64,000 nt of DNA from Escherichia coli (GTDB taxonomy: Bacteria > Pseudomonadota > Gammaproteobacteria > Enterobacterales > Enterobacteriaceae). The notes beneath the pieces are model-generated. The model was not told the DNA's origin. It made no database searches and saw nothing but the letters and a program-made list of their open reading frames with translations. This document shows, in pieces, positions 60,156-60,987 of the stretch. Made by a program: the position numbers and the translations under genes. The stretch lies in NCBI RefSeq assembly GCF_024298765.1, contig NZ_CP101210.1. The stretch is one strand, 5' to 3'. Every line of letters begins with the position of its first letter. Position 1 is the first letter of the stretch.

Positions 60156-60987
60156 ACGGGTTCCTGAGTCCGGTGAAGCGCCGGTTACTGGAAAATGTTG
60201 TGTACGTCATAACAGAAACGGAGAGAAAAACGGCGATGCAAATCAGGCGGAGAAGGGTGTATCAGCGGTTACTGAAGGTTGACCCGCTGAAGTGCATCCT
60301 GTGCGGAGGTCAGATGCGGTTTACGGGGCTGAAGCGGGGCTACCGTCTGGCAGAGCTGGTCATGATGCATGAGCCACTGGCACGACAGCGGGTATACAGC
60401 TGAGAGCCGCAGAGGGGAAGTTGCGTCCATTTTTTGAGGAATGGAGCAAAAAATCATCACAGATATAAAAAATCAATCAATGAAAGCCATTTAATTGCCG
60501 GTGCATTGTGGATGCAGTCCTCATGGTACGTAACCAGAGTTGAATAAACATCCATTTTTTTGTGTTTTTTTAACCTCCCCGGGTTTTTAATTCCTGTCGA
60601 TTAAAAGTGTTAGATTATTTGGTTAAGAGTTCTCTCGTCCTATTTATTCAGGCGTTATCACGGATATGCAGATCGCTAAGTCAGTTGTAAGAAAACCAGA
60701 CAGTGCACATCATTATACCTAGGTCTTCTCTGGAAAAATACTTAGGAATAATTTATGTAAAACAGGTTGTCGTCTTCATGATTTAAACGCAGTACATATA
60801 TATACTCTATAATAAATACAGGGAGTATCACGAGACGTCTGGATAAGAGGAATAACCAGAATAAATTGGTAAGGAATAAAGACACTTATTTCTATTGAGA
60901 AAAAACATTCATCCTGATGTGATTAGTATCAATGAAATAATGTGCTTGTATGGTTGATAAAAAATGCATCACTAAAGAAAAAACAGT

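Follow-up and report, generated by a model that had tools for sequence, protein, structure and literature searches.

The interval 60156..60601 (plus strand) of the 64,000-nucleotide Escherichia coli stretch analyzed here, referred to as the window, is almost certainly the inactive 3′ part that is left of an IS91-family insertion sequence, one of the rolling-circle elements that encode an HUH/Y2 transposase. As delimited by blastn, the whole remnant is 446 bp long and consists of the tail of the transposase gene tnpA, a 3′ non-coding region, and an oriIS-type terminus. The coding part, at 60158..60403 on the plus strand, corresponds by protein alignment and PGAP annotation to residues 315–395 of a 395-aa transposase followed by a TGA stop. 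What survives of tnpA is therefore its final 81 codons and the stop codon, about the last fifth of the gene.

Two intact elements served for comparison, an IS91-family copy on pRM8385-1 and the IS91 with an upstream orf121 in ETEC1706, both of which encode 395-aa transposases. The 81 residues of the fragment match WP_000937603.1 from pRM8385-1 at 71/81 positions and the TnpA of IS91 at 69/81, in gapless alignments that end at the same stop codon. When intact IS91-family TnpA was used as a tblastn query against the whole 64-kb window, the sole match was 60158–60394, with 89–90% identity and E values of 1e-40 and 1e-38. At the DNA level, blastn against the intact elements aligned 60153 to 60601 or 60604, with 85% identity over 449 bp and 81% over 453 bp. 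The right limit of homology recurs genome-wide at 60601–60604, or at 60601–60610 in a more sensitive search. A tblastn search of plasmids with the 81-aa translation matched 1249 records, and among the matches listed, those at ∼83–90% identity are IS91-family transposase genes wherever a feature is annotated. Neither the plasmid tblastn nor a large protein database search, which returned only short fragments (the longest 140 aa), turned up an intact parent exceeding ∼91% identity to the fragment. The NCBIfam model transpos_IS91 scores the fragment at 14.4 bits (E = 0.014, cutoff 125) over model positions 302–355 of 356; this silence is expected because the fragment covers just the last ∼54 positions of the model, and the assignment is thus based on the pairwise and collection searches.

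The tnpA tail sits within a mechanical ORF at 60050..60403 on the plus strand (117 aa, GTG start; program-made ORF list), the translation of which terminates in MQIRRRRVYQRLLKVDPLKCILCGGQMRFTGLKRGYRLAELVMMHEPLARQRVYS / RRRRVYQRLLKVDPLKCILCGGQMRFTGLKRGYRLAELVMMHEPLARQRVYS, as quoted in the original prediction. By the limits of homology, this ORF is a chimera of an IS3-element part, 60050–60155, and the IS91-family tnpA tail. Its 5′ 106 bases are IS3 sequence in a frame unrelated to that of orfB, and the only reason for its existence is that the IS3 end is free of stops in that frame. The original prediction had placed the start of the ORF inside an IS3 element, in agreement with the orfB stop at 60096 and the end of the right inverted repeat at 60155, and had reasoned that only the 3′ part could belong to a gene cut by the insertion; the breakpoint at 60155/60156 bears this out. 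It had also suggested, without assigning it, the C terminus of another type of transposase, which the homology searches now identify as the 81 C-terminal codons of an IS91-family HUH/Y2 rolling-circle transposase. The range that it proposed for BLAST, 60156–60403, begins exactly at the IS3/IS91 breakpoint and gave the significant tblastn matches cited above. What it missed are a further 198 bp of the remnant, from the tnpA stop to the oriIS-type right end at 60601.

The left boundary of the remnant is set by the 3′ part of an IS3-family element at 58861..60155 on the plus strand (NCBIfam, blastn, and alignment to an ECONIH2 copy). Its orfB, at 58945..60096 on the same strand, scores 378.9 bits (E = 2.7e-113) with NCBIfam transpos_IS3 and carries the Pfam domains rve, HTH_21, and rve_2; a DDE transposase with rve and terminal inverted repeats of the TG...CA type are both as found in the IS3 family. 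The element is not IS2, as the IS2-specific NCBIfam model gives only 21 bits (cutoff 597) against 379 bits for the generic IS3-family model. The right inverted repeat ends at 60155 with ...GGCGTTGACA. In alignment with the independent IS3 copy of ECONIH2, identity runs through ...CATCGTGGCGTTGACA and divergence begins exactly there, and this right end corresponds, in inverted orientation, to the left end TGTCAGCGCC in two intact copies. The IS3 element therefore ends at 60155 and the remnant starts at 60156. The IS3 element is itself incomplete: blastn alignment to an intact copy in pTB-nb2 begins at window position 58861, so that the first ∼300 bp are absent, and the missing left part is not present in the 64-kb window. 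At 58860 (...CAGTTTACGCTTAC), the end of an IS66-family element abuts the IS3 interior. The IS66-family unit is complete and lies on the minus strand, with tnpA at 58350–58775, tnpB at 58003–58353, and tnpC at 56380–57972. In the avian pathogenic E. coli (APEC) strain IMT5155, more IS66-family pieces lie just upstream (ISCro1 and a tnpA/tnpB pair without tnpC), indicating a nest of IS66 elements (window ∼54000–58860).

Downstream of the tnpA stop, the 3′ non-coding region at 60404–60601 continues to an oriIS-type terminus 198 bp away. Just 3′ of the stop, a pattern scan finds a terminator-like hairpin, CGCAGAGGGGAAGTTGCG followed by a T run, at 60408..60435 on the plus strand. The scan returned one site against 0.9 expected, so the hit is weak taken alone; because the sequence of 60408–60435 is also kept in intact IS91-family copies, the hairpin is probably the element's own tnpA terminator. 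Relative to the 3′ non-coding region of the two intact elements, the window carries an insertion of ∼11 bp near 60503–60513, within GGTGCATTGTGGATGCAG, and this insertion makes a short TGCAT/ATGCA palindrome. An Rfam search of 59900–61100 at E ≤ 1 gave no matches.

The last 82 bp of the remnant, 60520..60601 on the plus strand, correspond to the oriIS end as defined for IS91, for which the closing 82 bp of the right end, together with the adjoining tetranucleotide, are sufficient (PMC13181058, 2026). Here the pRM8385 element is matched at 66/82 positions and IS91 at 59/82 (72–80%), and the terminal 13 nt, AATTCCTGTCGAT, occupy 60589–60601. Three independent IS91-family right ends share ...AATTCCT(A/G)TCGAT, with one A/G difference, and homology ends at that point. 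The remnant thus has what is expected of the family, an oriIS-type right end ∼190 bp past the tnpA stop with a conserved terminus, but not the specific tetranucleotide abutting it. In IS91, oriIS is adjoined by 5′-CTTG or GTTC, less often CTCG, and this tetranucleotide is needed for further transposition (PMC13181058). Three unrelated IS91-family right ends located elsewhere have CAAG, GAAC, and CGAG as their next four bases, whereas end alignment places TAAA (5′-TTTA on the other strand) at 60602..60605 in the window. The TAAA flank is found in every aatA-linked copy examined; it lies outside the canonical CTTG/GTTC/CTCG set, and TTTA is absent among the insertion-site tetranucleotides tabulated for IS91 (PMC13181058). 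Either the element inserted off target, a rare event, or a small deletion has altered the junction. On the O103 plasmid pRM8385-1, positions 2064–5043 hold two tandem IS91-family elements, the second frameshifted and truncated; the right end of this second element has the same G-variant 13-mer, AATTCCTGTCGAT, as the window remnant, with GAAC as its flank. When the oriIS region was folded as single-stranded DNA, on both strands and for two intact elements as well as the window, no structure stood out as significant or was common to them. For the last ∼105 nt, z scores were alike in all three (−1.7 to +0.2), the short, subterminal imperfect palindromes of oriIS being beyond the reach of the method.

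We infer that the remnant is inactive because the zinc-binding domain, nearly all of Y2_Tnp, and terIS are missing and the flanking tetranucleotide is non-canonical. The Pfam domains of intact TnpA are Zn_Tnp_IS91 at residues 17–104 and Y2_Tnp at 142–321. The remnant begins at residue 315, retaining ∼7 residues of the catalytic domain and none of the zinc-binding domain, and Pfam detects neither Y2_Tnp nor Zn_Tnp_IS91 in the window ORF. The surviving residues 315–395 are colinear with TnpA at 85–88% identity, which places that part, and only that part, in the IS91 family; the HUH motif, the paired catalytic tyrosines of Y2_Tnp, and the Zn_Tnp_IS91 domain of a functional IS91 are absent. The N-terminal part of TnpA is found nowhere in the 64-kb window by tblastn, and no terIS left end is found in the window by blastn with two complete elements, including ∼560 bp 5′ of tnpA. 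With no second IS91-family sequence in the window, there is consequently neither a terIS nor a transposase in cis. The reading frame of the fragment is still open, even though we read it as a pseudogene. Between fragment and intact copies, dN/dS is 0.37–0.46; the two intact copies compared with each other give 0.27 for these codons and 0.09 for the full gene. The values for the fragment rest on 17–22 substitutions in 81 codons, too few to separate relaxed from purifying constraint. The direction of the difference fits relaxed constraint, and the ratio below 1 mostly reflects divergence from the time when the parent gene still worked.

To the right of the remnant lies aatA, encoding the APEC autotransporter adhesin A, of which the window holds the 5′ 3013 bases of 3498 bp (60988..64000, plus strand; Pfam, PGAP, and PMC2944236). 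The gene runs off the end of the window at about codon 1004 of 1165, and its Pfam domains are AC_1, Autotransporter beta, PATR, Pertactin, and VID. The right end of the remnant is 386 bp 5′ of the aatA ATG at 60988. The gene was first characterized in IMT5155 (PMC2944236; GenBank GU550065), where IS2-like and IS91-like sequence was reported 5′ of it (Dai et al. 2010, BMC Microbiol 10:236, PMC2944236). Window positions 54000–61500 align to the chromosome of APEC IMT5155 in a single 7.5-kb piece at 99.8% identity. The order in IMT5155 is nested IS66-family elements, a 5′-truncated IS3-family element, the IS91 fragment, the autotransporter gene (3498 bp), IS1, and the fec operon. The window matches the "variant 1" chromosomal context of IMT5155, with IS1 and fecIRA on the downstream side. 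A 140-bp AT-rich stretch, 60602–60741, separates the IS91 right end from position 60742, where the sequence shared with the aatA loci of B-lineage strains begins; in searches of E. coli genomes, this stretch matched within the aatA-linked module only.

Several hundred complete E. coli genomes contain the 601 bases of 60100–60700 at 99–100% identity, and among the matches listed at ≥98.6% identity the annotated feature is always "IS91 family transposase." All four annotated full-fragment records examined carry a PGAP pseudogene of an IS91 family transposase at the equivalent of 60158..60403, described as "incomplete; missing N-terminus." In junction-specific searches, the IS3/IS91 junction was found in 299 of 5426 complete genomes and the oriIS/flank junction in 411 of the same 5426, on chromosomes and plasmids. 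This gap is explained, at least partly, by lineages in which the remnant has been cut back further. IS1-associated deletions extend to 60436 and 60497 in other strains that have an intact aatA; an IncHI-type plasmid has the remnant cut at 60172, another plasmid keeps just the last 28 bp of the IS3 end, and B-lineage strains share sequence from 60742 onward only. Because aatA is annotated as intact in all of these cut-back lineages, the remnant is dispensable. In pTB-nb2, the IS3 element is intact and its flanks are unrelated to each other, with a threonine dehydrogenase fragment on the left and the IS91 tail on the right; no target duplication surrounds it (TAC versus ACG). These flanks therefore point to rearrangement after the IS3 insertion, not to insertion alone.

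Several other explanations of the interval have to be weighed against that of an inert remnant. The original prediction held that without a significant homolog the region would most likely be non-coding, and a chance ORF devoid of gene ancestry might seem to suit a 117-aa translation on which Pfam finds only noise (zf-C2HE, E = 0.22; Zn_ribbon_TiaS, E = 0.26). That possibility can be discarded given the tblastn match to intact transposases at E = 1e-40, the colinearity to the exact C terminus and stop codon, and the DNA homology that continues into the 3′ end of the element. A functional small protein could instead be made from the ORF or from a 55-aa internal ORF (ATG at 60236), for example a CxxC peptide that would interfere with the transposases of the IS91 family. 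In its favor are the open frame, a GGAG 12 nt 5′ of the ATG, and the 55-aa product that some annotators call, with 100% identity, on 71 contigs. However, ATG 60236 is Met341 of intact TnpA, such that the methionine and the sequence upstream of it are internal to the parent gene and did not evolve separately. The promoter scan finds no promoter-like site before this ATG, there is no independent Pfam domain, PGAP calls a pseudogene, and several lineages have lost the coding part by deletion while keeping aatA; we regard a working peptide as extremely unlikely.

The non-coding portion of the remnant raises two further alternatives. A putative cis-active oriIS could be nicked at 60601/60602 by an IS91-family transposase supplied in trans by a co-resident plasmid, with one-ended rolling-circle mobilization leftward through IS3, IS66, and beyond. 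IS91 transposition proceeds from oriIS through tnpA to terIS, and a failure of termination gives one-ended transposition that carries DNA past terIS; as oriIS needs only the final 82 bp and the tetranucleotide (PMC13181058), the full-length right end with its conserved terminal 13-mer would in principle qualify, and E. coli plasmids often carry intact IS91-family elements. If this were the case, the remnant could occasionally start mobilizing adjacent island DNA despite its TTTA flank. The essential tetranucleotide is nevertheless 5′-TTTA here instead of CTTG, GTTC, or CTCG, the last 82 bp are only 72–80% identical to those of active or intact elements, the single-stranded fold of the window end is insignificant (z = −1.2 to −1.7), and the window has neither transposase nor terIS, which together make a live origin very improbable. 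The remnant might otherwise act as a regulatory spacer for aatA, either through an outward promoter, as with P_OUT of ISCR1, or through a terminator against read-through from IS3. Outward promoters near oriIS are described for ISCR1, a distant relative of IS91 (PMC6218425), and the hairpin at 60408–60435 is terminator-like. The aatA promoter has, however, been mapped experimentally to the 100 bp before the ATG (PMC2944236), that is, window 60888–60987, and is therefore outside the remnant, at least 287 bp past its end. The promoter scan finds no promoter-like site on the plus strand of 60156–60987, and the aatA gene is intact in strains without most of the remnant; a regulatory role is thus very improbable.

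We favor the inert remnant and propose the following history for it. An IS91-family element would formerly have been present with its right (oriIS) end 386 bp 5′ of aatA, and an IS3-family element would next have inserted within its tnpA. Everything before codon 315, including terIS, any orf121, and the zinc-binding and catalytic domains, may have been lost later by deletion or by an IS-mediated rearrangement, leaving the last 81 codons and stop, the hairpin after the gene, and the oriIS-type terminus. We infer this order, with the upstream four-fifths of the IS91 element lost after the IS3 insertion, from the arrangement of the junctions. The IS91-family element most likely inserted beside aatA instead of carrying it, because aatA sits on the oriIS (target) side. 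The fragment would be inert by itself and would persist through physical linkage to aatA, co-traveling with it between chromosomes and plasmids.

The remnant is ordinary and already known, as public genomes carry its annotation and the aatA literature refers to it, and it teaches nothing new about transposition or adhesin biology. Its study assigns a short ORF to a known class, the IS91-family transposase pseudogenes, and shows that aatA moves through E. coli together with a constant scar left by two insertion sequences. As a lineage marker, this scar could help to trace the aatA module, and it also recalls that IS remnants should be masked when genes are called. The 5′ flank of aatA described in IMT5155 by Dai et al. 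is the same locus as the window, as the 7.5-kb alignment indicates. They labeled the IS3-family element as an interrupted "IS2," whereas the element in the window is an IS3-family member other than IS2. Their account (PMC2944236) does not give breakpoints or mention the oriIS end.

Among intact elements, the remnant is like the IS91-family element known from E. coli virulence plasmids, such as pRM8385-1 (O103), in its last 81 codons (71/81 in protein, 93% in DNA; 85% over 449 bp overall) and in its 3′ non-coding region, which can be aligned to the shared terminus. It differs in the lack of codons 1–314, terIS, and the upstream ORF, in its ∼11-bp insertion, and in its TAAA rather than CGAG flank. 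IS91 proper, known from α-hemolysin plasmids and represented here by the ETEC1706 copy (WP_000937614.1), shares 69/81 residues, the position of the stop, and the terminal 13-mer except for one A/G difference, but is more distant in DNA, with 81% identity over 453 bp and 59/82 in the last 82 bp; its 3′ non-coding region is thus the more diverged. IS91 proper also has orf121, a full tnpA, and the canonical CAAG (5′-CTTG) flank, none of which is found in the window remnant. In layout, the locus resembles the ISCR elements, IS91-like "common regions" found beside resistance genes (PMC13181058 and PMC6218425), in which the transposase 3′ end leads to an oriIS terminus bordering on accessory genes and the terIS side is often missing. 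Unlike the remnant, an ISCR copy as a rule has its whole transposase gene. The likeness between the aatA-linked scar and ISCR is one of layout only.
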